A DNA stretch of 64,000 bases from an uncultured virus (IMG/VR IMGVR_UViG_3300028283_000004) (Duplodnaviria; Heunggongvirae; Uroviricota; Caudoviricetes): IMG/VR virus record IMGVR_UViG_3300028283_000004; one strand, written 5' to 3'. The translations under genes were made by a program, and so were the position numbers. Shown here piece after piece: positions 1 through 7,196 of the stretch; positions within the stretch are counted from its first letter, which is position 1, and every line of letters starts with the position of its first letter. The notes under the pieces are model-generated. The model ran no database searches. It had not been told where the DNA came from and saw only the letters and a list, made by a program, of their open reading frames with translations.

Positions 1-84
1 ATATAAATTGTAATATAATACGCCAGCAATTGCGTGACTAAATTTTGCTGTGGTGTTCTTTACTGCTTCTGTAATTGTTATCAT
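1..84 (-). CDS. hypothetical protein, N-terminal fragment (runs off window edge)
   Basis: ATG at 84, open frame MITITEAVKNTTAKFSHAIAGVLYYNLY to position 1, AT-rich upstream. Confidence 0.55.
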   Translation of the reverse strand, partial: MITITEAVKNTTAKFSHAIAGVLYYNLY

Positions 85-177
85 AATTATAAATTTAAAT
101 TTTTATTAAAGTAGCTAACTGGTTAGCTAGTATATGCTCCGTGAAGCTAAACCAGCTAACATTTCAACCACTATTTG

Positions 178-248
178 TAGAAGATAACAGAATCGAACTG
201 TTTCCATGTCTTTGTAATAGACAGACGCTACCATTACATCAATCTTCT
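178..248 (-). tRNA. tRNA-Val(TAC)
   Basis: Cloverleaf: acceptor AGAAGAT/ATCTTCT, anticodon arm TGTCT-ATTACAA-AGACA, T arm AACAG-TTCGATT-CTGTT; no encoded CCA. Confidence 0.85.
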
Positions 249-294
249 ATTTTGTTGAGTACTATCAACAGAATTATGGTTCTGATGATAATAA

Positions 295-942
295 TCAACA
301 TTTTTTTAATATTCGACCTTTACACCAACCCTCATTAATGAATATAGGCAAGTCATCATTTTTTATTTTTTTATTAATACCATTTTTTATTATCCAACAT
401 GTACTAAATTGCGAATTTTTATTTCCAATACCATGATTAATTTTTATTTCTTTCATTAATTCAATAGTTTTATCGCTATGATGTCTTCCAGTAAAATTAT
501 CATATTTCATTTTACCAAGTTTATGATTTTTAATCATATTTTTTTTTGAACTATTAGATATTTTATGTCGATATTCATCATTTTTCCATTGATTTAATAA
601 ATATTTTGATGCACCATGTCTCATTTTTATTAGATGTTCTTCTGATATTAAACCACCTTGACCACCAACCATTATGTTCATACAATCATCTTTTGCTATT
701 TCATTTAAATTAACTATTTCTTTTTCACGTTCAACTAATGATTTTCTATCTGAAAGAAATTCAATTATTTCAACTTTATGGTTTTCTTTTCCATATTTAA
801 TAATTGATCTTCTTAATCTTTTTCCAGAACCCATATAACCATCTGTTAAATTATTGGTTGAATGCATACCATAATAATATTTATTAGTAAGAATATTAGT
901 TGTTTTATAGATAAAATGAAATTCTTTTTCTTTTCTTGCCAT
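295..942 (-). CDS. free-standing GIY-YIG homing endonuclease (Seg-like) with NUMOD3-like motif
   Basis: FIYKTTN...YYYGMH...YMGSG catalytic motif; GRHHSDKT NUMOD3-like motif; lies between tRNA genes as T4 segB does. Confidence 0.85.
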   Translation of the reverse strand: MARKEKEFHFIYKTTNILTNKYYYGMHSTNNLTDGYMGSGKRLRRSIIKYGKENHKVEIIEFLSDRKSLVEREKEIVNLNEIAKDDCMNIMVGGQGGLISEEHLIKMRHGASKYLLNQWKNDEYRHKISNSSKKNMIKNHKLGKMKYDNFTGRHHSDKTIELMKEIKINHGIGNKNSQFSTCWIIKNGINKKIKNDDLPIFINEGWCKGRILKKC

Positions 943-990
943 AATATTTATTTCAATATAAATACTATGAAGTACAAAAAAGACCTAGGG

Positions 991-1076
991 TAACGCATGG
1001 GGGATTCGAACCCCTCGAAATCACAGAGGATGCCACCTTGAAAGAGTGGATGCTTTGACCGCTTGCATAATGCGCT
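991..1076 (-). tRNA. tRNA-Glu(TTC) with expanded variable region
   Basis: Acceptor AGCGCAT/ATGCGTT, anticodon arm CCACT-CTTTCAA-GGTGG, T loop TTCGAAT, about 17 nt variable region. Confidence 0.75.
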
Positions 1077-1111
1077 ATTTATATCTCATATCATTTATGA
1101 GTGACTAAGAG

Positions 1112-1186
1112 CACCACCGATGGGATTCGAACCCACGATCTCAAGCGTGACAGGCTTGCAGGGACGACCAACTCCCCTACGGTAGT
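1112..1186 (-). tRNA. tRNA-Asp(GTC)
   Basis: Acceptor ACTACCG/CGGTGGT, G73, anticodon arm CAAGC-CTGTCAC-GCTTG, T loop TTCGAAT. Confidence 0.92.
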
Positions 1187-1196
1187 ATTATATTAG

Positions 1197-1269
1197 CAGT
1201 GCGTGAGGGTGCTGACCCCTGACCTTCGATGTGACAGACCGATGTACAAACCGCTATACTACACACACT
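1197..1269 (-). tRNA. atypical tRNA-Asp(GTC), apparent 8/4 cloverleaf
   Basis: Acceptor AGTGTGTG/CACGCACT (8 bp), D stem GTAT/GTAC, anticodon arm TCGGT-CTGTCAC-ATCGA, T arm AGGG-GTCAGCA-CCCT, G discriminator. Confidence 0.7.
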
Positions 1270-1286
1270 ATGTTTATTATCCAATA

Positions 1287-1297
1287 TGTCAAAGAAC
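1287..1297 (-). promoter_or_regulatory. boxA-like antitermination element
   Basis: GTTCTTTGACA just 5' of the first tRNA; resembles the rrn boxA consensus TGCTCTTTAACA. Confidence 0.55.
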
Positions 1298-1307
1298 CTC
1301 TCCTAAC

Positions 1308-1342
1308 AAAAAAAAGACCCAACTGTTATTGTCGGGTCTTTT
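1308..1342 (-). terminator. intrinsic terminator (attenuator) of the Asp/Glu/Val tRNA operon
   Basis: GACCCGAC-AATAACA-GTTGGGTC followed by T8, between the leader ORF and the tRNAs. Confidence 0.85.
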
Positions 1343-1371
1343 CTATTTGAAAGGAGATTGTAATATTTTTA

Positions 1372-1458
1372 TTACCCGACAGTATATAGCTTATCCTCTT
1401 CATCCCATAATAGGACTACCGCTAATGCTACCATCAATATGTCGAGTACGTTTTTCAT
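1372..1458 (-). CDS. putative attenuator leader peptide MKNVLDILMVALAVVLLWDEEDKLYTVG (28 aa)
   Basis: ATG 1458 to TAA 1372; five Val codons and a DEED run; last codons TGTCGGGT complementary to terminator 5' arm ACCCGACA. Confidence 0.8.
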   Translation of the reverse strand: MKNVLDILMVALAVVLLWDEEDKLYTVG

Positions 1459-1491
1459 TATTTCTATTTCTTATTTGTTATAAATATTCTG

Positions 1492-1522
1492 CAAATATAC
1501 GCATTAAAATCATAAATACAAA
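1492..1522 (-). promoter_or_regulatory. Bacteroidota-type sigma-A promoter with embedded GTATTTAT phage motif
   Basis: TTTG-N19-TATATTTG; near-identical copy at 5232-5263. Confidence 0.8.
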
Positions 1523-1588
1523 TGTTTTTAAAAAAAATTGTTTATTTATAATAATTCTTAATAATTCATCATTAATACGACCCTTTTT

Positions 1589-1993
1589 TCATTCGGGTTC
1601 TATCTCTTCTTTCAATCCAACCATTTTCTTTAGTTCGGCTTTAATTCTTTTAGCGTTTTCACCCCGATAAGAACTTGCATTTGAGAGAAAATACAATACA
1701 ATGCTTTTTGCATCATCATAACCATATTTATCGTTTACACTATTTAAACTTGACATTGCATCCAAATAAGGTTTTGCAGCATAATTAACGTTTCCCCAAT
1801 CCCTACGAATTTCACGTGCAATTTGTGATAATGTTCTAGGTTCACCGCTAGGAATACCATTATTACTAGGCTGTTTGTTTGGCATATCGAATGGGTCACC
1901 ATCGTACATTTCATTTAGTCTAGGTTTAAATGTCGGGTCTAATTTACTCATAACTTCCATTAGATATTCTCTTGTGTTTTCTTTCTTTTTCAT
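1589..1993 (-). CDS. hypothetical protein with shared N-terminal leader (putative head-packaged protein)
   Basis: 134 aa ORF; N-terminus YLMEVMSKLDPTFKPRLNE; GTATTTAT motif upstream. Confidence 0.75.
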   Translation of the reverse strand: MKKKENTREYLMEVMSKLDPTFKPRLNEMYDGDPFDMPNKQPSNNGIPSGEPRTLSQIAREIRRDWGNVNYAAKPYLDAMSSLNSVNDKYGYDDAKSIVLYFLSNASSYRGENAKRIKAELKKMVGLKEEIEPE

Positions 1994-2019
1994 GTTAAAA
2001 TTTTTATTATAAATACTAA

Positions 2020-2514
2020 TTATTTTTCCGTTGTTTTTCCGTCAAATTTTTCTTTACTTTCTGATGCTTCTTCTTTGGTTTTAAATACAATACCATCTTT
2101 ATGATTTGGTGGAGTGTAAATGGTGTACATTTTTAATGGTTTGTTCCCAGTATTAATAATATTATGTTCTGAACCAGAAGGAATAATTATTGCATCACCA
2201 TCAGTTACCGAATATTCGTTACCATTAATAATGCATTTACCATTTCCAGATTCAAATCTGAAGAACTGATCAATTGTTGGGTGAGTTTCCATACCAATTT
2301 CTTCTTTGGGTTTAAGAGTCATTAAGACTAGCTGCATGTGTTCACCAGTATATAATACTTTTCTAAAGTCAGTATTATCTAAAGTATCTTTTTCAATATT
2401 GGAATGAAAACCTTTTTTATTAGATTTTTTAGTTTCGTTTAATGTTGGCTTGAATGATTTATCCAATTTGCCCACCATTTCAAAAAGTAATTCTTTGGTG
2501 TTACGATTTTTCAT
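2020..2514 (-). CDS. cupin-domain protein with shared N-terminal leader
   Basis: Cupin motifs EIGMETHPTIDQFFRFESG and GDAIIIPSGSEHNIIN. Confidence 0.85.
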   Translation of the reverse strand: MKNRNTKELLFEMVGKLDKSFKPTLNETKKSNKKGFHSNIEKDTLDNTDFRKVLYTGEHMQLVLMTLKPKEEIGMETHPTIDQFFRFESGNGKCIINGNEYSVTDGDAIIIPSGSEHNIINTGNKPLKMYTIYTPPNHKDGIVFKTKEEASESKEKFDGKTTEK

Positions 2515-2557
2515 TTAAAAAGTTTTATATAAATACTTAACTTACAACGAAAAATAA

Positions 2558-2932
2558 TTACAATTTAAGCGATTTATAATAACTATCAAACAACGATTTA
2601 ATATTAAGACTTCCCACAGGATTCATTGAGTGAATTAAAATTGTTTCAGGAAGGTCTAATTGATTATCAATACAATAATTAATTAACCATTTTGCACAAT
2701 CATAACCAGTTTTTTCGGTATCTTCATCGTATGGAGGTGGTTTAACATAATGTAAATCAGCCAAATCATGATCGAAGGAAATCATTTGTGGCATTCCCTT
2801 TTCTGTTACCGTTTTCACAAACTCGTCATAATTTTTCACAACAGTCCATCCAAGTAAGTAGACTTGATTATAGGTGTAGTCAAAACAAACTTCTGGATTG
2901 CGGAAGTCGTCTAAGAAAAGATTATATATCAT
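2558..2932 (-). CDS. cyclic-phosphate-processing receiver-domain-like protein
   Basis: LFLDDFR, ISFDHDL, TGYDCAKWL and IHSMNPVG motifs typical of this phage-common family. Confidence 0.75.
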   Translation of the reverse strand: MIYNLFLDDFRNPEVCFDYTYNQVYLLGWTVVKNYDEFVKTVTEKGMPQMISFDHDLADLHYVKPPPYDEDTEKTGYDCAKWLINYCIDNQLDLPETILIHSMNPVGSLNIKSLFDSYYKSLKL

Positions 2933-3141
2933 ATTGATGGTTTTACTATTTTCTCTACAGTTATTTTAAATATTGGTCGATAACAATGTGGTTCACCAGT
3001 GCTTTCACAAATTACAAAAGATGAATTTGTTTCTAAATGCGTATGGTCATATAAAACTGCTGATGTTATATGCGTAATATCATGATACAATTCTTTAACA
3101 ACATGCTCTTTAATTGATTTTAAAATATCTTCTGCTTCCAT
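2929..3141 (-). CDS. hypothetical protein (tandem paralog 1)
   Basis: Starts MEAEDILKSIKEHV, identical to neighbour. Confidence 0.65.
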   Translation of the reverse strand: MEAEDILKSIKEHVVKELYHDITHITSAVLYDHTHLETNSSFVICESTGEPHCYRPIFKITVEKIVKPSI

Positions 3142-3143
3142 AT

Positions 3144-3353
3144 TTAACTAATGTTTCTTTTGGTATTGTCTTTTACATTAATAGTAAATTTTGGTATATA
3201 ACCATCTTTAACTTTCTCCAGTATAAAAAATGAAACATCATATTGCATTTCAGTGGGATCATACATGGTTGGTGATGTAATACATTTGTAATCTTCACTC
3301 AATTCTCTTTCGACATGCTCTTTAATTGATTTTAAAATATCTTCCGCTTCCAT
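3144..3353 (-). CDS. hypothetical protein (tandem paralog 2)
   Basis: Start reassigned to ATG 3353 from identity with paralog 1. Confidence 0.65.
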   Translation of the reverse strand: MEAEDILKSIKEHVERELSEDYKCITSPTMYDPTEMQYDVSFFILEKVKDGYIPKFTINVKDNTKRNIS

Positions 3354-3534
3354 AATTAAGATTTTTTGTAAAGATACAAAATTAAAATTAAATTTCAAAG
3401 CATATTTAAAATGTCCCAGAAATAGTTTTAATTAGGGACATGTTTTGTCGCATTTATTACACACATTTGTGACGAGTTTTGTCGCAAATATAGTAATAAT
3501 TTTCCCTCAAAATATTGGATAACAAGTTAATAAT

Positions 3535-3570
3535 AAGGGAGGTGCAAGATTTATTTTGCGCACCCCCCTT
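3535..3570 (-). terminator. probable terminator ending the Pro/His/Gln tRNA operon
   Basis: AAGGGGGGTGC...GCACCTCCCTT hairpin followed by an AT-rich tract, directly after tRNA-Gln. Confidence 0.6.
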
Positions 3571-3578
3571 GGCTAAAA

Positions 3579-3653
3579 TGGATGCCCCACGTGGACTTGA
3601 ACCACGACTCTGAGGTTCAAAACCTCATATGCTAACCATTACATAATAGGGCA
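3579..3653 (-). tRNA. tRNA-Gln(TTG)
   Basis: Acceptor TGCCCTA/TGGGGCA, anticodon arm TGAGG-TTTTGAA-CCTCA, T loop TTCAAGT, encoded CCA. Confidence 0.92.
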
Positions 3654-3656
3654 ATA

Positions 3657-3732
3657 TGGGGTGAAATGGGGGATTCGAACCCCTCACCAACACATTCACA
3701 GTGTGTTGTGCTACCGTTACACTAAAATCACC
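3657..3732 (-). tRNA. tRNA-His(GTG)
   Basis: G-1:C73, anticodon arm ACACA-CTGTGAA-TGTGT, T loop TTCGAAT, encoded CCA; two T-T mismatches in acceptor stem. Confidence 0.8.
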
Positions 3733-3740
3733 ATATTAAG

Positions 3741-3814
3741 GGTGAATGACGGAGTACGATTCCGCAACCTTCTGAACCACAATCAGACGCTCTACCAATT
3801 GAGCTACAATCACC
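3741..3814 (-). tRNA. tRNA-His(GTG) with non-canonical T loop
   Basis: G-1:C73, D arm GCTC-AATTGGTA-GAGC, anticodon arm TCTGA-TTGTGGT-TCAGA, T arm GCGGA-ATCGTAC-TCCGT. Confidence 0.85.
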
Positions 3815-3817
3815 ATA

Positions 3818-4822
3818 TCACGAGTTTTCATAAAACTCTAAAAATTTTTCAATTTCATTTTCAATATATTCTTTACCTTCTACGGATTTAATACTTTTCC
3901 ATATTATTCTATAAACTATATATCCATTCTTTTTTAATACTTCATCTCTTTTTTCATCATGCTCACCTCTATATTTATGTTGACTTCCATCAATTTCCAA
4001 ATCAATATTTTTATCTTTAAAATAAAAGTCCAAGAAATAATTACAAGAATCATTCAAACCCAAGTCTCTTTTATTTACTGGATGATTATGAATATAATTA
4101 ATATTGTTGTTATTCAATACGTTCATAAAAAATTGTTCAGGATAACTAATTATATTTCTAGTTGCCCAACCCTTTAATAAACCATCTTTCGCTAAATTTT
4201 TCATTATAATACTACTCTTATTACGTTCCTCTTGACTTAAGTATCTATAAGTTGTTGAACATTTATTTGAACAAAACATATTTTTACTTTCCTTTTGTAA
4301 CTTTGTTAACTTATCCCCACAATGTCGGCATGATTCAATCACAATACCATTTGGTTTAAATTTCCTGATAAGTATTAAACGACAATTATCTGAGCAACAT
4401 TTAGCTCTACTAATATTTCCACTTAATGTTTTTAGAGGATTAAATTCAATATCACAAACGACACAGTTTCGTAATTTTTTCTCTTGTAAAATTTTTTCTT
4501 TAATATGTTTTATGTTTACATATTTTTTATTTATACTATTCCTAATTTTATTTTTAGTTTCATCATTAAGTATTCTATTTTTATTATTATATGTGGCAGC
4601 GCAAGAACTATTACAAAATTTATTTCTATTGGGTATTATTTCACCACAATTTAAACAAGTATTTATTTTCTTGTTTAAGTGGGACAATTCAATATTATTT
4701 TCAATAATAAACTCATTTAGTTTATCATATGCAGATTTATTTGCATATCCGAAATATTTTAAAAGCATTTCGTTTTTTGATTTAGATGTTGCAATAATTT
4801 CAAACAATTTTTCTTTTTTCAT
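3818..4822 (-). CDS. free-standing endonuclease: zinc-ribbon repeats plus C-terminal DUF559/Vsr-like domain
   Basis: Three CxxC...CSxxC repeats; SYPEQ, YFLDFY, LEIDGSQH, DEKRDEVLKKNGYIVYRI motifs; start moved to ATG 4822, downstream of the GTATTTAT motif. Confidence 0.8.
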   Translation of the reverse strand: MKKEKLFEIIATSKSKNEMLLKYFGYANKSAYDKLNEFIIENNIELSHLNKKINTCLNCGEIIPNRNKFCNSSCAATYNNKNRILNDETKNKIRNSINKKYVNIKHIKEKILQEKKLRNCVVCDIEFNPLKTLSGNISRAKCCSDNCRLILIRKFKPNGIVIESCRHCGDKLTKLQKESKNMFCSNKCSTTYRYLSQEERNKSSIIMKNLAKDGLLKGWATRNIISYPEQFFMNVLNNNNINYIHNHPVNKRDLGLNDSCNYFLDFYFKDKNIDLEIDGSQHKYRGEHDEKRDEVLKKNGYIVYRIIWKSIKSVEGKEYIENEIEKFLEFYENS

Positions 4823-4883
4823 AACATTTAATTTATTATAAATACTATGAAAGTCGAAAAAATACAAGTCGAACTATTAAATA

Positions 4884-4894
4884 TTTCAAAGAAC
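4884..4894 (-). promoter_or_regulatory. boxA-like antitermination element
   Basis: GTTCTTTGAAA after the two Pro tRNAs; matches the element at 1287-1297. Confidence 0.5.
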
Positions 4895-4903
4895 TTTTTA
4901 TCG

Positions 4904-4977
4904 TCTAGGTGACAGGATTCGAACCTGCGGACCACTGTTTCCAGAACAGCGTAGTATACCAACTGCAATACACCTAG
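4904..4977 (-). tRNA. atypical tRNA-Pro(TGG)
   Basis: Acceptor CTAGGTG/CACCTAG with A73 (Pro-like C1:G72), arm GCTGT-TCTGGAA-ACAGT (C33, A37), canonical T arm, poorly paired D stem. Confidence 0.6.
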
Positions 4978-4986
4978 TTATTTTTG

Positions 4987-5061
4987 TAGCGTAGGTGAGA
5001 TTCGAACTCACGAGTTTTCCACATCCCAAATGTGGCTGGGTGACCGCTCCCAAACTACGCT
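4987..5061 (-). tRNA. tRNA-Pro(TGG)
   Basis: Acceptor AGCGTAG/CTACGCT, D stem TGGG/CCCA, arm CCACA-TTTGGGA-TGTGG, T loop TTCGAAT. Confidence 0.9.
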
Positions 5062-5071
5062 ATGTTAAACG

Positions 5072-5100
5072 AAAAAACCCCACTCTTGCGAATGGGGTTT
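5072..5100 (-). terminator. intrinsic terminator (attenuator) of the Pro/His/Gln tRNA operon
   Basis: AAACCCCATTC-GCAA-GAGTGGGG followed by T6, about 10 nt before the first tRNA. Confidence 0.88.
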
Positions 5101-5129
5101 ACTAATCCTTACTCTTTTCCTCGAAAAAT

Positions 5130-5204
5130 TTAGATATAGTTTCCCCATTCACCATCATGTGGATGTTGTTGGGGTTGGTGTACTATACTAACTAAATTTT
5201 TCAT
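5130..5204 (-). CDS. putative attenuator leader peptide MKNLVSIVHQPQQHPHDGEWGNYI (24 aa)
   Basis: ATG 5204 to TAA 5130; eight consecutive His/Gln/Pro codons; GTGAATGGGG complementary to terminator 5' arm CCCCATTCGC. Confidence 0.88.
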   Translation of the reverse strand: MKNLVSIVHQPQQHPHDGEWGNYI

Positions 5205-5231
5205 CGCTTCTAAATAAATTAAATCTCTATG

Positions 5232-5263
5232 CAAACATATGCATTTAAAATCATAAATACAAA
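5232..5263 (-). promoter_or_regulatory. Bacteroidota-type sigma-A promoter with embedded GTATTTAT phage motif
   Basis: TTTG-N20-TATGTTTG; paralogous to 1492-1522. Confidence 0.8.
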
Positions 5264-5293
5264 CGTTTTTGAAAAAAATTAAAAATATTTTTA

Positions 5294-5917
5294 TTATTGT
5301 GTTTGTCCGTAAGCAATATTATATGTTTGTGCGTATTTTTGTTTAATAAATTCTCTTAATTCATTAAAAAAATTAGGTACTGGATCAGTATCTGGCATTG
5401 AGTTTAGTTTATTTACTGCGAATTCTATGAATTCATCTTCAATTCTATCATCCAATAAAACAGAAACTTCTGAATCAATATTTAATAGTTGCATAAATCC
5501 TGTTGGTGTTTTGGGTGCTGCTTTTGTTTTCGGTCCAAGTAATTTCTTAAAAACCTTCCAAGTATCATGTCCAGTAGATGCAGCACCTGCACCGCCCATT
5601 GCAACACCACCAGCAACAGCAGCTAACGCTCCACCAGTTCCAATTGTTCCAGCAACAAAGCCAGCAACACCTATTAATCCAACGACACATTTTAAAACGT
5701 CCACACCTGAACTTTTTGCCTTAGCAAGTGCTTCTTCTTTACTTGCTGAATGTTCATAAATATTAATTGCTTCTCTCAATTCGCCAACACTTAATGTGTT
5801 ATCATCAATAAATGAAGGGTTTCTTCTGTTTGGTGTAGGTGCTGCCATCTCCTTAATAATAAAATCGGGGTTAACTCTATGCATTACTTCAAACAATCTT
5901 TCTTTATTGTTTTTCAT
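5294..5917 (-). CDS. hypothetical protein with shared N-terminal leader and Gly/Ala-rich hydrophobic hairpin
   Basis: KERLFEVMHRVNPDF...IKE leader; VVGLIGVAGFVAGTIGTGGALAAVAGGVAMGG segment. Confidence 0.75.
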   Translation of the reverse strand: MKNNKERLFEVMHRVNPDFIIKEMAAPTPNRRNPSFIDDNTLSVGELREAINIYEHSASKEEALAKAKSSGVDVLKCVVGLIGVAGFVAGTIGTGGALAAVAGGVAMGGAGAASTGHDTWKVFKKLLGPKTKAAPKTPTGFMQLLNIDSEVSVLLDDRIEDEFIEFAVNKLNSMPDTDPVPNFFNELREFIKQKYAQTYNIAYGQTQ

Positions 5918-5924
5918 GGTAATT

Positions 5925-6305
5925 TTATTTAAATCCCATTTTCATCATCATGTCACCAACGACTTGTTTAACCTTCATAATGCTTATTGCTGGGTTTTCT
6001 GGTTTATATCCCAAGCCAGAAAACCAAACTCTAAATGCTTCAGGAAATTCCGTTGCCGTATTAATTCGTTTACTTGCACTTTGAACAGTCGAAGCATTCT
6101 GTGTTGCCCTACCCAATGTTTTGACATCTGAAGGCTGATTTGGCATTGCTGGTTGTGTTGGTTGTACAGGTGCTGAACCAATAGGTGATTGTGCTGATGT
6201 TGCACCAATTTGTGATGCCTCATCGATTATGTTTGATTGGAATGTTGGGTCTATTTTAGATAACATTTCAAAAAGCATTTGTTTTGTGTTTTCTTTGTTT
6301 TTCAT
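5925..6305 (-). CDS. hypothetical protein with shared N-terminal leader
   Basis: KQMLFEMLSKIDPTF...IDE; GTATTTAT motif upstream. Confidence 0.75.
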   Translation of the reverse strand: MKNKENTKQMLFEMLSKIDPTFQSNIIDEASQIGATSAQSPIGSAPVQPTQPAMPNQPSDVKTLGRATQNASTVQSASKRINTATEFPEAFRVWFSGLGYKPENPAISIMKVKQVVGDMMMKMGFK

Positions 6306-6343
6306 TATGAAAATTTATAATAAATACTATATTTATAAACAAA

Positions 6344-6371
6344 AAATTGCACCACATAACATGGTGCAATT
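6344..6371 (-). terminator. intrinsic terminator-like hairpin
   Basis: AATTGCACCA-TGTTATG-TGGTGCAA followed by a T run on the minus strand. Confidence 0.55.
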
Positions 6372-6596
6372 ATAATCATTATTGTCAAGCATTAAAATTT
6401 TACGTAACCACTATCTGGCAATAAAATTTTAAAAATCATTCCCGATTTCCCAGACATAGCCTAATTTATCAATTAAGCAATGATTTTTCATATATAAATA
6501 CTGAGGTAGTATGAATTTTCGTAATTAGACCATCTTTTGATCACGTTTTTTTATTTTATTTGTATTTTATATAGTATTTATAAAAAAATGATAAAA

Positions 6597-7196
6597 ATGA
6601 TAAATAATGATATTATAAGAATAATAACCGAAGAAATTTCAGAATTTGATTTTCTTGGCAATGATAAATATCAAAAAGAAAACGAATCCATTGATTTGCT
6701 AAAAAACGAAGAATTTCAAAAACGATTTATTTGTGATGCACTTTTAAGTAAGAACAATATAGGCATTAATATTTATGATTCAAGAATTGGTGGTGATTGG
6801 GAGAATGATGCTGAGGATGCATCAAGGCTTACAATCGAATATATGACAAATATCACGTATCAATATGACAAAGAAAAAGAACCAGTTAAATTTAATTTAG
6901 ATTTTAGAAGTGATGGAATTCAAATAAGCAAAGGAGAGAGAGAGGATTTTGCCACATATGATACACCAGCATATGGTGAAGCATGGTTTAATTATTTTAA
7001 TTGGGGCGATATTGAGGTTAGCATGTACACCGATGATGGTGATGATGTTGATTTTATTGCATTTAGAAAAGCACCTGCAAAAATTCAGACATTATTTATT
7101 AGACATTTTACTCAAGAATATATAGGCGAATACACTGGATTGGAAATTCGTACATCTGAAATGAAAAATAATATTCAAAATACACCATATTGCTAA
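6597..7196 (+). CDS. hypothetical acidic protein
   Basis: ORF with GTATTTAT motif upstream; start probably ATG 6588 or 6597. Confidence 0.7.
   Translation: MINNDIIRIITEEISEFDFLGNDKYQKENESIDLLKNEEFQKRFICDALLSKNNIGINIYDSRIGGDWENDAEDASRLTIEYMTNITYQYDKEKEPVKFNLDFRSDGIQISKGEREDFATYDTPAYGEAWFNYFNWGDIEVSMYTDDGDDVDFIAFRKAPAKIQTLFIRHFTQEYIGEYTGLEIRTSEMKNNIQNTPYC

Follow-up and report, generated by a model that had tools for sequence, protein, structure and literature searches.

What controls the transfer RNA (tRNA) genes that a virus carries is the question raised by a locus near the left end of a 64,000-nucleotide (nt) stretch of an uncultured virus (IMG/VR record IMGVR_UViG_3300028283_000004), referred to here as the window. 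An operon for tRNA-Asp, tRNA-Glu and tRNA-Val is preceded there by a short open reading frame (ORF) and an intrinsic terminator, which we call unit A; a second leader and terminator, unit B, stand ahead of a Pro/His/Gln tRNA operon. Unit A and its operon lie entirely on the minus strand, where a sequence-only reading had placed them as an attenuator. On our analysis, unit A is likely to be a ribosome-mediated leader-peptide transcription attenuator that gates the phage tRNA operon and opens on slow decoding of the cognate codons, a reading strongly supported by sequence comparison with relatives. The same comparison indicates that it is one member of a four-unit family present in a set of large T4-like phages.

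Anatomy of unit A and its operon

The predicted promoter of unit A (1522-1492) is of Bacteroidota type. It consists of TTTG at 1522-1519, a 19-nt spacer and TATATTTG at 1499-1492, and fits TTTG-N18-21-TAnnTTTG, the promoter consensus of the Bacteroidetes literature. A 19-nt core of it recurs unchanged at 5263-5245, in front of the Pro/His/Gln cluster; with up to three mismatches allowed, the window has no match besides these two.

The leader ORF (1458-1372) comprises 28 codons and a stop codon and would encode MKNVLDILMVALAVVLLWDEEDKLYTVG, with the five Val codons (three GTA and two GTC) and the GAT GAA GAG GAT series that had been read from the sequence. In its sensor, codons 4-22 (VLDILMVALAVVLLWDEED, 1449-1393), 18 of the 19 residues are isotypes of the operon family. 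The 15-residue run of Asp, Glu, Val, Leu, Ala, Trp and Met in leader A is the longest in the six-frame translation of all 64 kilobases (kb), and the longest Pro/His/Gln run (8 residues) in that translation is in leader B; these two maxima agree with the earlier argument that two leaders of one architecture are not a product of chance. The composition of the whole peptides is less striking, as random protein segments reach the own-set share of leader A in 94 of 200,000 draws and that of leader B in 658 of 200,000, and similar shares are seen in a handful of further short ORFs in the window.

Downstream of the leader, an intrinsic terminator (1341-1308) is found both in the minimum free energy (MFE) fold and in a separate terminator scan. 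It is composed of the 5' arm AAAGACCCGAC (1341-1331), the loop aataaca (1330-1324), the 3' arm GTTGGGTCTTT (1323-1313) and a run of eight T (1315-1308); a simple consensus terminator scan omitted it, though it listed the terminator of unit B. In the free RNA of unit A, which has a z-score of -5.26 with none of 200 shuffles as stable, the terminator is closed in the MFE structure. The leader end had been described as a perfect complement of the terminator arm, and the match is exact: segment 2, TGTCGGGT (1381-1374), which overlaps the stop codon and forms the 5' strand of the putative antiterminator, is the 8-nt complement of segment 3, ACCCGACA (1337-1330), in the terminator 5' arm. Segment 1, TACTCGACA (codons 4-7, 1448-1440), pairs with TGTCGGGTA in the MFE fold of the free RNA; this segment and its pairing with TGTCGGGT were absent from the sequence-only reading. 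With segment 4 in the terminator, the full 1:2, 2:3 and 3:4 layout of a classical trp-type attenuator is thus present in the predicted folds of unit A.

The terminator is followed by a boxA-like element, GTTCTTTGACATATTGGATAAT (1297-1276), which begins with the 9-mer GTTCTTTGA (1297-1289). Of seven Bacteroidota genomes sampled, six have the exact GTTCTTTGA 78-137 nt ahead of the 16S gene, the position at which the boxA of ribosomal RNA (rrn) operons sits, and this occurrence supports both the boxA label, already given to the element from its sequence, and a Bacteroidota host. A second exact copy of the boxA 9-mer lies at 4894-4886 on the minus strand, between tRNA-Pro and the HNH gene of operon B.

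The gene order behind the terminator is the one that had been described. A tRNA-Asp(GTC)-like gene (1268-1198), atypical in its T loop, detected by Rfam only (40.3 bits), missed by ARAGORN and kept in the close relative L114 (labels with L or G denote related loci and genomes from the collections searched), is followed by tRNA-Asp(GTC) (1186-1111) and a 90-nt tRNA-Glu(TTC) (1077-988; 36.2 bits in Rfam), then by a homing endonuclease ORF inside the operon (942-295; PHROG 314, E value 7e-35, no Pfam match at E 0.001) and by tRNA-Val(TAC) (248-177), the last three tRNAs being reported by both ARAGORN and Rfam.

Unit B spans 5263-5062 on the minus strand, with its promoter at 5263-5232, its leader MKNLVSIVHQPQQHPHDGEWGNYI at 5204-5130 and its terminator at 5100-5075. 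Its free RNA has the same layout as that of unit A (z = -4.90), and the T run of its terminator ends just 10 nt ahead of tRNA-Pro. The operon behind it holds two tRNA-Pro, an HNH endonuclease, two tRNA-His and tRNA-Gln. A motif scan gave no second promoter between the unit A terminator and the tRNAs. Taken with the 10-nt distance in unit B, this means that expression of the tRNAs needs read-through of the terminators.

Several further features of this region were recorded. Both tRNA operons contain a homing endonuclease gene on the minus strand, at 295-942 (PHROG 314) and 3818-4867 (HNH, PHROG 1271). Just past tRNA-Gln, a G+C-rich hairpin recognised by eye (3537-3568, minus strand; GGGGGGTGC ... 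GCACCTCCC with a 14-nt loop, then TTATTATT) may mark the end of operon B. A 193-nt contig of one metatranscriptome library equals window positions 1282-1474, covering leader, terminator and boxA, and the same library holds three pieces of the first 5.3 kb in total; nothing was drawn from these contigs about transcription, as they show no ends or strand and DNA may be present.

Conservation of the leader and its pairing segments

Related units were sought with a degenerate pattern built from leader A, with the 19-nt promoter core for unit B and with a 17-mer for unit C, one of two further leader/terminator units, C and D, described in relatives below. A-type units make up 16 of 17 viral-contig, 41 of 52 metagenome and 1 of 8 genome-contig matches of the leader A pattern. 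The other seven genome-contig matches were rejected as chance, and the sole genuine one is a 363-kb phage contig binned in a metagenome-assembled genome, which reveals no host. In all, with duplicates between collections kept, unit A was counted 59 times, and the distinct set consists of 40 DNAs and 37 peptides.

The unit is tied to tRNA genes. All 47 copies with at least 500 nt of downstream sequence have a tRNA within 450 nt, tRNA-Asp being the first in 44 of them; conservation of the 28-residue ORF independently of tRNA genes, an outcome that would speak against an attenuator, was not seen. Operon content was tabulated for the 24 copies with at least 3.5 kb of downstream sequence, where tRNA-Asp occurs in 21, Glu in 20, Val in 20, Leu in 22, Ala in 18 and Trp in 16, with no foreign isotype within 2.5 kb downstream. 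The operon of the window probably continues beyond the left edge, as in the closest relative L114, which has an identical leader peptide and in which tRNA-Val is followed by a small ORF and then by tRNA-Leu(TAA) and tRNA-Leu(TAG). The sequence-only reading had predicted a tRNA-Ala beyond that edge from the two Ala codons of the leader. The prediction agrees with the 18 relatives' operons that include one and fails for L114, where no tRNA-Ala was found within 5 kb, nor any tRNA-Trp.

The leaders of these relatives vary in a manner that retains both a reading frame and a set of isotypes. In the sensor core, defined for this family as codon 4 to four codons beyond Trp, 672 of 732 residues (92%) of the 37 distinct leaders belong to {D,E,V,L,A,W,M}, compared to a share of 0.35 in the long ORFs of the window. 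For the whole of leader A the share is 0.73, and it falls to 0.22 and 0.18 in the other two frames of the same DNA. All 40 distinct DNAs keep the leader open as a reading frame, with its start codon in place and with sensor insertions and deletions (indels) that are all multiples of three. The C-terminal part of the leader varies in frame and length between lineages, and the stop codon is always within reach of segment 2, which begins 5-18 nt ahead of it in the 38 members that could be scored (for the other two of the 40 DNAs, the terminator rule found no terminator).

The pairing segments covary. In an alignment of 14 unit A sequences, the terminator is 100% paired with two pairs showing compensatory change, and the antiterminator 2:3 helix is 97% paired, one of its pairs being AU in six sequences and UA in six. 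RNAalifold on all 40 sequences recovered only the terminator (nine pairs, three with compensatory change), indels blurring the rest, and helices were therefore scored sequence by sequence. The Watson-Crick 2:3 helix then has a median of 9 base pairs (bp) among the 38 DNAs, and in 30 of the 38 it is matched by at most 10 of 1000 shuffles. Outside an invariant core, GTCGGG/CCCGAC, its extension takes at least seven covarying forms (T/A, CA/TG, ACA/TGT, AT/AT, ATT/AAT, GTA/TAC and GCA/TGC). In simulations of nascent RNA, cut before the terminator 3' arm exists and with a ribosome placed at set positions, the 2:3 helix of units A and B forms when the ribosome is in mid-sensor and does not form when it is at the stop codon. 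In simulations of the full-length RNA, unit B switches even thermodynamically with a ribosome at codons 8-10.

Two additional helices accompany this layout. A small hairpin, GTAATA/TATTAC (1375-1360), lies between segments 2 and 3 inside the predicted nascent antiterminator fold, and its covariation with TGTAAA/TTTACA was noted by eye in the alignment and is uncounted. In the MFE fold, the terminator is enclosed by a helix of TCTCCT (1357-1352) and AGGAGA (1304-1299), spanning 1357-1299, which reaches at least 5 Watson-Crick bp in 34 of 38 members of quite different sequence (in 19 of the 38, at most 50 of 1000 shuffles do as well). This helix is possible only in read-through RNA and might serve as a stem for processing or as a boxB-like hairpin beside boxA. 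Behind it, the boxA motif GTTCTTTGACATG.TGGAAATT is kept in 36 of the 40 unit A members, about 20 nt ahead of the first tRNA.

Four units in large T4-like relatives

The window is a fragment of a T4-like myovirus, with a Gp20-type portal, a Gp23-type capsid protein, a T4-type large terminase, a tail sheath and a baseplate protein. By capsid protein, its nearest cultured relatives are Flavobacterium phages, the best being immuto (33% identity), and uncultured phages of 484 and 595 kb come next. Immuto has three tRNAs by Rfam (four annotated), and no leader/terminator unit was found in it, which leaves it unsuited as a ready model. DNA searches gave no cultured relative, the sole match being a 62-nt tRNA-Asp stretch of a Microbacterium phage; near-identical DNA occurs in lake and freshwater metagenomes, of which the two best matches may represent the source sample. 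The hosts are probably freshwater Bacteroidota. Around the two units, four neighbouring ORFs on the minus strand (1589-1993, 2020-2514, 5294-5917 and 5925-6305) have in common an N-terminal module, MKN.ENTKE.LFEM..K.DP.F, which is some 25 residues long and is joined to unrelated C-terminal parts, one of them a cupin; the module includes an L-x-E motif and presumably resembles the capsid-targeting leaders of T4-like internal proteins, which are cleaved by the prohead protease.

The sequence-only reading had suggested scanning for further promoter-leader-terminator units ahead of other tRNA clusters, and such units exist. IMG/VR contains 24 exact matches to the 19-nt promoter core; a B-type leader and terminator accompany 23 of them, and 21 show Pro/His/Gln tRNAs in the sequence available. 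Two relatives rated complete, of 327,676 and 362,763 bp and with 42 and 55 tRNA matches, carry four units each. In these relatives, a PQPQQHP-type leader (unit B) is followed by Pro, His and Gln tRNAs, and unit A by Asp, Glu, Val, four Leu, Ala and Trp. Unit C has a YYYGKKSYKK-type leader, e.g. MRTFGTYYYGKKSYKKQL..., followed by Lys and Tyr, and unit D a ISTSTSSRNGNGIFC-type leader, e.g. MKAISTISTSTFTTSSRNGNGIFCFGRN..., ahead of tRNAs for Cys, Ile, Ser, Phe, Gly, Asn, Thr and Arg. At the place that corresponds to that in unit A, the other three units each have a 2:3 helix of 8 bp. Among the search matches, C-type units account for 21 of the 43 for the 17-mer, the other 22 being rejected as chance hits of an AT-rich 17-mer, and D-type units for three of three.

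In the two complete relatives, the four leaders are enriched in disjoint isotype sets that jointly cover all 20 amino acids. Of the leader residues, 70 of 116 and 73 of 124 fall in the set of the leader's own operon, values that none of 100,000 shuffles among the four leaders reached (maxima 53 and 56); of the 24 ways to pair leaders with operons, the true one scores best. When all distinct leaders are taken together, the own-set share is 0.73 for A, 0.36 for B, 0.35 for C and 0.82 for D, relative to backgrounds of 0.35, 0.08, 0.13 and 0.44, and this signal vanishes in the other two reading frames.

A change of operon content is accompanied by a change of leader in one lineage. In L151 and L158 (L159 has the same leader and tRNA list), operon B includes a tRNA-Arg(ACG); L153 is of the same lineage, and its sequence stops after the first tRNA-Pro. 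The B leader of this lineage reads ...HQRPQ.QPR..., with two Arg codons in the run, CGC and CGA in L158 and L153 or CGC and CGG in L151. Where operon B lacks tRNA-Arg, none of the 19 distinct leaders has an Arg from codon 4 to the Glu-Trp codons, and comparison of these sequences indicates that leader B gained Arg codons where operon B gained tRNA-Arg. The order of the units in this lineage, A then B, is the reverse of that in the window, and each leader still stands with its own operon. The B helix GAATGGG/CCCATTC has become GAACGGG/CCCGTTC in L151, with the Trp codon becoming Arg; this compensatory change implies that the structure, and not the residue, is kept there. In sensor B as a whole, the residues are kept through synonymous variation, the Pro columns using four and three codons and the Gln columns two, while the structural Glu-Trp codons are invariant.

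Other peculiarities of operon B were observed. In L151, L158 and L159 it also ends with a tRNA-Leu(TAA), and the leader starts with MKNLL, with two TTA codons compared to one in most B leaders, a possible second case of co-change between leader and operon. A tRNA-Pro(TGG) of 92-97 nt with a long extra arm, odd for tRNA-Pro and absent from the window, is a regular member of operon B in many relatives (L002 3427-3521, L005 3280-3374, L044 1944-2039). A tRNA with anticodon CTA (labelled 'Pyl' by ARAGORN), a candidate amber suppressor, occurs in L042 (G001), L046 (G002) and L153.

Proposed working, alternatives and meaning

The attenuator reading of unit A draws its support from the conserved ORF, the sensor matched by isotype, the covarying antiterminator and the relatives with four units; leader translation, stalling, conditional read-through and Nus loading we infer from this anatomy, as follows. 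Transcription would start from the promoter at 1522-1492, and the A-rich 5' end would let ribosomes translate the leader behind the moving RNA polymerase. If the Val, Leu, Asp, Met, Ala, Trp and Glu codons are read fast, the ribosome would arrive at the stop codon and cover segment 2; if the leader is left untranslated, segment 1 would pair with segment 2. Either way, segment 3 would be available to segment 4, the terminator would form and transcription would stop at the T run. When cognate charged tRNA from the joint host and phage pool is scarce, the ribosome would stall in the sensor, occupying segment 1 and leaving segment 2 free to pair with segment 3 before segment 4 is made, so that no terminator would form and the polymerase would read through. 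The host-type rrn boxA would then presumably load Nus factors, giving processive, Rho-resistant transcription of the untranslated RNA. Read-through would yield two tRNA-Asp, tRNA-Glu, tRNA-Val and, beyond the window, probably tRNA-Leu. These new tRNAs would relieve the stall, a negative feedback by which the tRNA set is supplied on demand.

A number of observations weigh against this reading. Some concern the specificity of the sensor. Only the tRNAs for Asp, Glu and Val are visible in the window, Leu coming in through L114. The whole-peptide shares given above are low for leaders B and C, and C leaders hold 9-10 residues of set C versus 11-16 of set D, for which the background is 0.44. Enrichment of rare codons in the leaders is confounded by the structural segments and was not used as support; matching at the level of anticodons was dropped for the same confounding. 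The unit A sensors contain Ile (35) and Phe (11) with no tRNA in the operon, the main exceptions to the isotype set, both of them in segment 1, and they contain Met codons, yet a tRNA-Met occurs within 3.5 kb in none of the 24 copies tabulated (in G001, one lies 3.4 kb beyond tRNA-Trp). Some leaders contain GAG or CAG codons although neither a CTC nor a CTG anticodon is seen in the operon behind them, and matching is therefore by isotype and not strictly by anticodon.

The coarse matching and the Ile, Phe and Met codons would suit a device that is coupled to translation without being specific, reporting general translation capacity (ribosome availability, elongation rate) with a codon composition that is a historical or structural by-product; the architecture alone would indeed respond to any slowing of the ribosome. 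We regard this alternative as unlikely. The four leaders of a genome are enriched in four disjoint sets that track their own operons to a degree no shuffle attained, sensor substitutions remain within the set, Arg codons appear in the leader where the operon gained tRNA-Arg, and leaders move with their operons when the order of the units is swapped.

Other unfavourable points concern the RNA. The 1:2 helix has 88% of its cells paired in the 14 sequences and shows no compensatory change; its median length is 9 bp, yet it is at or below 10 of 1000 shuffles in only 1 of 38 members, which is not significant. At most simulated ribosome positions, the MFE structure of the full-length unit A RNA still contains the terminator, and the 8-bp antiterminator is weaker than the 11-14 bp of the terminator. 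The antiterminator would therefore have to win kinetically, as in known attenuators. A thermodynamically dominant terminator, together with a unit A peptide that is hydrophobic with an acidic patch, could also be understood as a constitutive leaky terminator that sets the tRNA level or ends upstream transcription, next to an ORF for an unrelated small peptide (a hydrophobic membrane peptide in unit A). This explanation fares somewhat worse still than a non-specific sensor. In units B, C and D the peptides lack this hydrophobic character and have nothing but the design in common, leader A was never met away from tRNAs in the 47 informative copies, its C-terminal part shifts frame and length while the RNA pairing stays, a Trp codon of unit B has turned into Arg through a compensatory change, and the antiterminator, needless for a simple terminator, covaries. 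An untranslated switch in which the leader RNA binds tRNA or another ligand directly, in the manner of a T-box or riboswitch, would account for the strong structure of both RNAs and would resemble T-box leaders, which also gate genes of the translation apparatus through a terminator/antiterminator switch, and it is highly improbable: Rfam detects no T-box or other riboswitch family in 1-7000 at E values up to 1, the start codon, the stop codon near segment 2 and the three-nucleotide step of sensor indels are conserved, codons vary synonymously at kept residues, and the isotype signal is lost in other reading frames.

A ribosome-mediated attenuator is accordingly the reading we retain for unit A, and a more ambitious extension of it to the whole family can be put forward tentatively, as one we think less probable than not. 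The four units might form a modular sense-and-resupply circuit, four sensors spanning all 20 amino acids, each gating its own operon through a conditional terminator and boxA and co-evolving with operon content, which would detect loss of host tRNAs by codon class and replace the missing set. Such loss could be caused by anticodon nucleases or other tRNA-targeting defences, by host shut-off or by the AT-rich codon demand of the phage.

The class of mechanism is a textbook one. The enterobacteria have multivalent leader attenuators in ilvGMEDA (Ile/Leu/Val) and thr (Thr/Ile), besides those of trp, his, leu and pheA. Unit A shares with the ilv and thr type a promoter-proximal short ORF rich in regulatory codons, several amino acids that a single leader would sense, predicted alternative pairings (1:2, 2:3 and 3:4), an intrinsic terminator between the leader and the genes under control and a stop codon placed so that the terminating ribosome would mask segment 2. 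In contrast to these leaders, the phage unit would control tRNA genes, closing its loop on tRNA abundance and not on amino-acid synthesis. The phage leaders would sense three to eight isotypes each, and they are phage-encoded, in four copies that partition the amino acids, with boxA behind them. In sequence, the phage unit and the enterobacterial leaders are unrelated: the Rfam family Thr_leader (RF00506) scores 22.4 bits at 1307-1380, below its gathering threshold of 55 (E value 0.91), an architectural resemblance at most. The pheST/pheM attenuator of Escherichia coli is similar in placing a gene of the translation apparatus under leader attenuation with cognate-codon decoding as the signal; its product is a tRNA-charging enzyme and it senses one amino acid, whereas the products of the phage unit are tRNAs themselves. 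Gram-positive T-box leaders of aminoacyl-tRNA synthetase and amino-acid genes likewise sense tRNA status and switch between terminator and antiterminator upstream of translation-related genes, but they bind uncharged tRNA directly and are untranslated, whereas the phage element bears the marks of a translated ORF. With Nus antitermination at rrn leaders, the phage operon has in common the identical boxA 9-mer and a place ahead of long untranslated RNA genes; it differs in that boxA stands in a phage tRNA operon right behind a putative conditional terminator. Unit A is thus set apart by its tRNA-gene target, the breadth of its sensor, its phage setting and its coupling to boxA.

The usual view places the control of tRNA genes at their promoters, through growth rate and the stringent response, and in processing. 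The literature searched, in which subscription journals were not covered, gave no description of leader-peptide or attenuator control of tRNA genes. If the attenuator reading is true, translation-sensing attenuation would be a new mode of tRNA supply control, in which the product feeds back on its own sensor. The units, compact at about 215 nt and modular, would be natural devices for sensing how fast defined sets of codons are decoded and could serve as reporters, and each leader predicts which tRNA depletion opens which operon. Phages rich in tRNAs would then meter their 40-55 tRNAs in sets rather than simply express them, which bears on why large phages carry tRNAs at all, be it for codon compensation, to withstand host shut-off or to escape tRNA-targeting defences.

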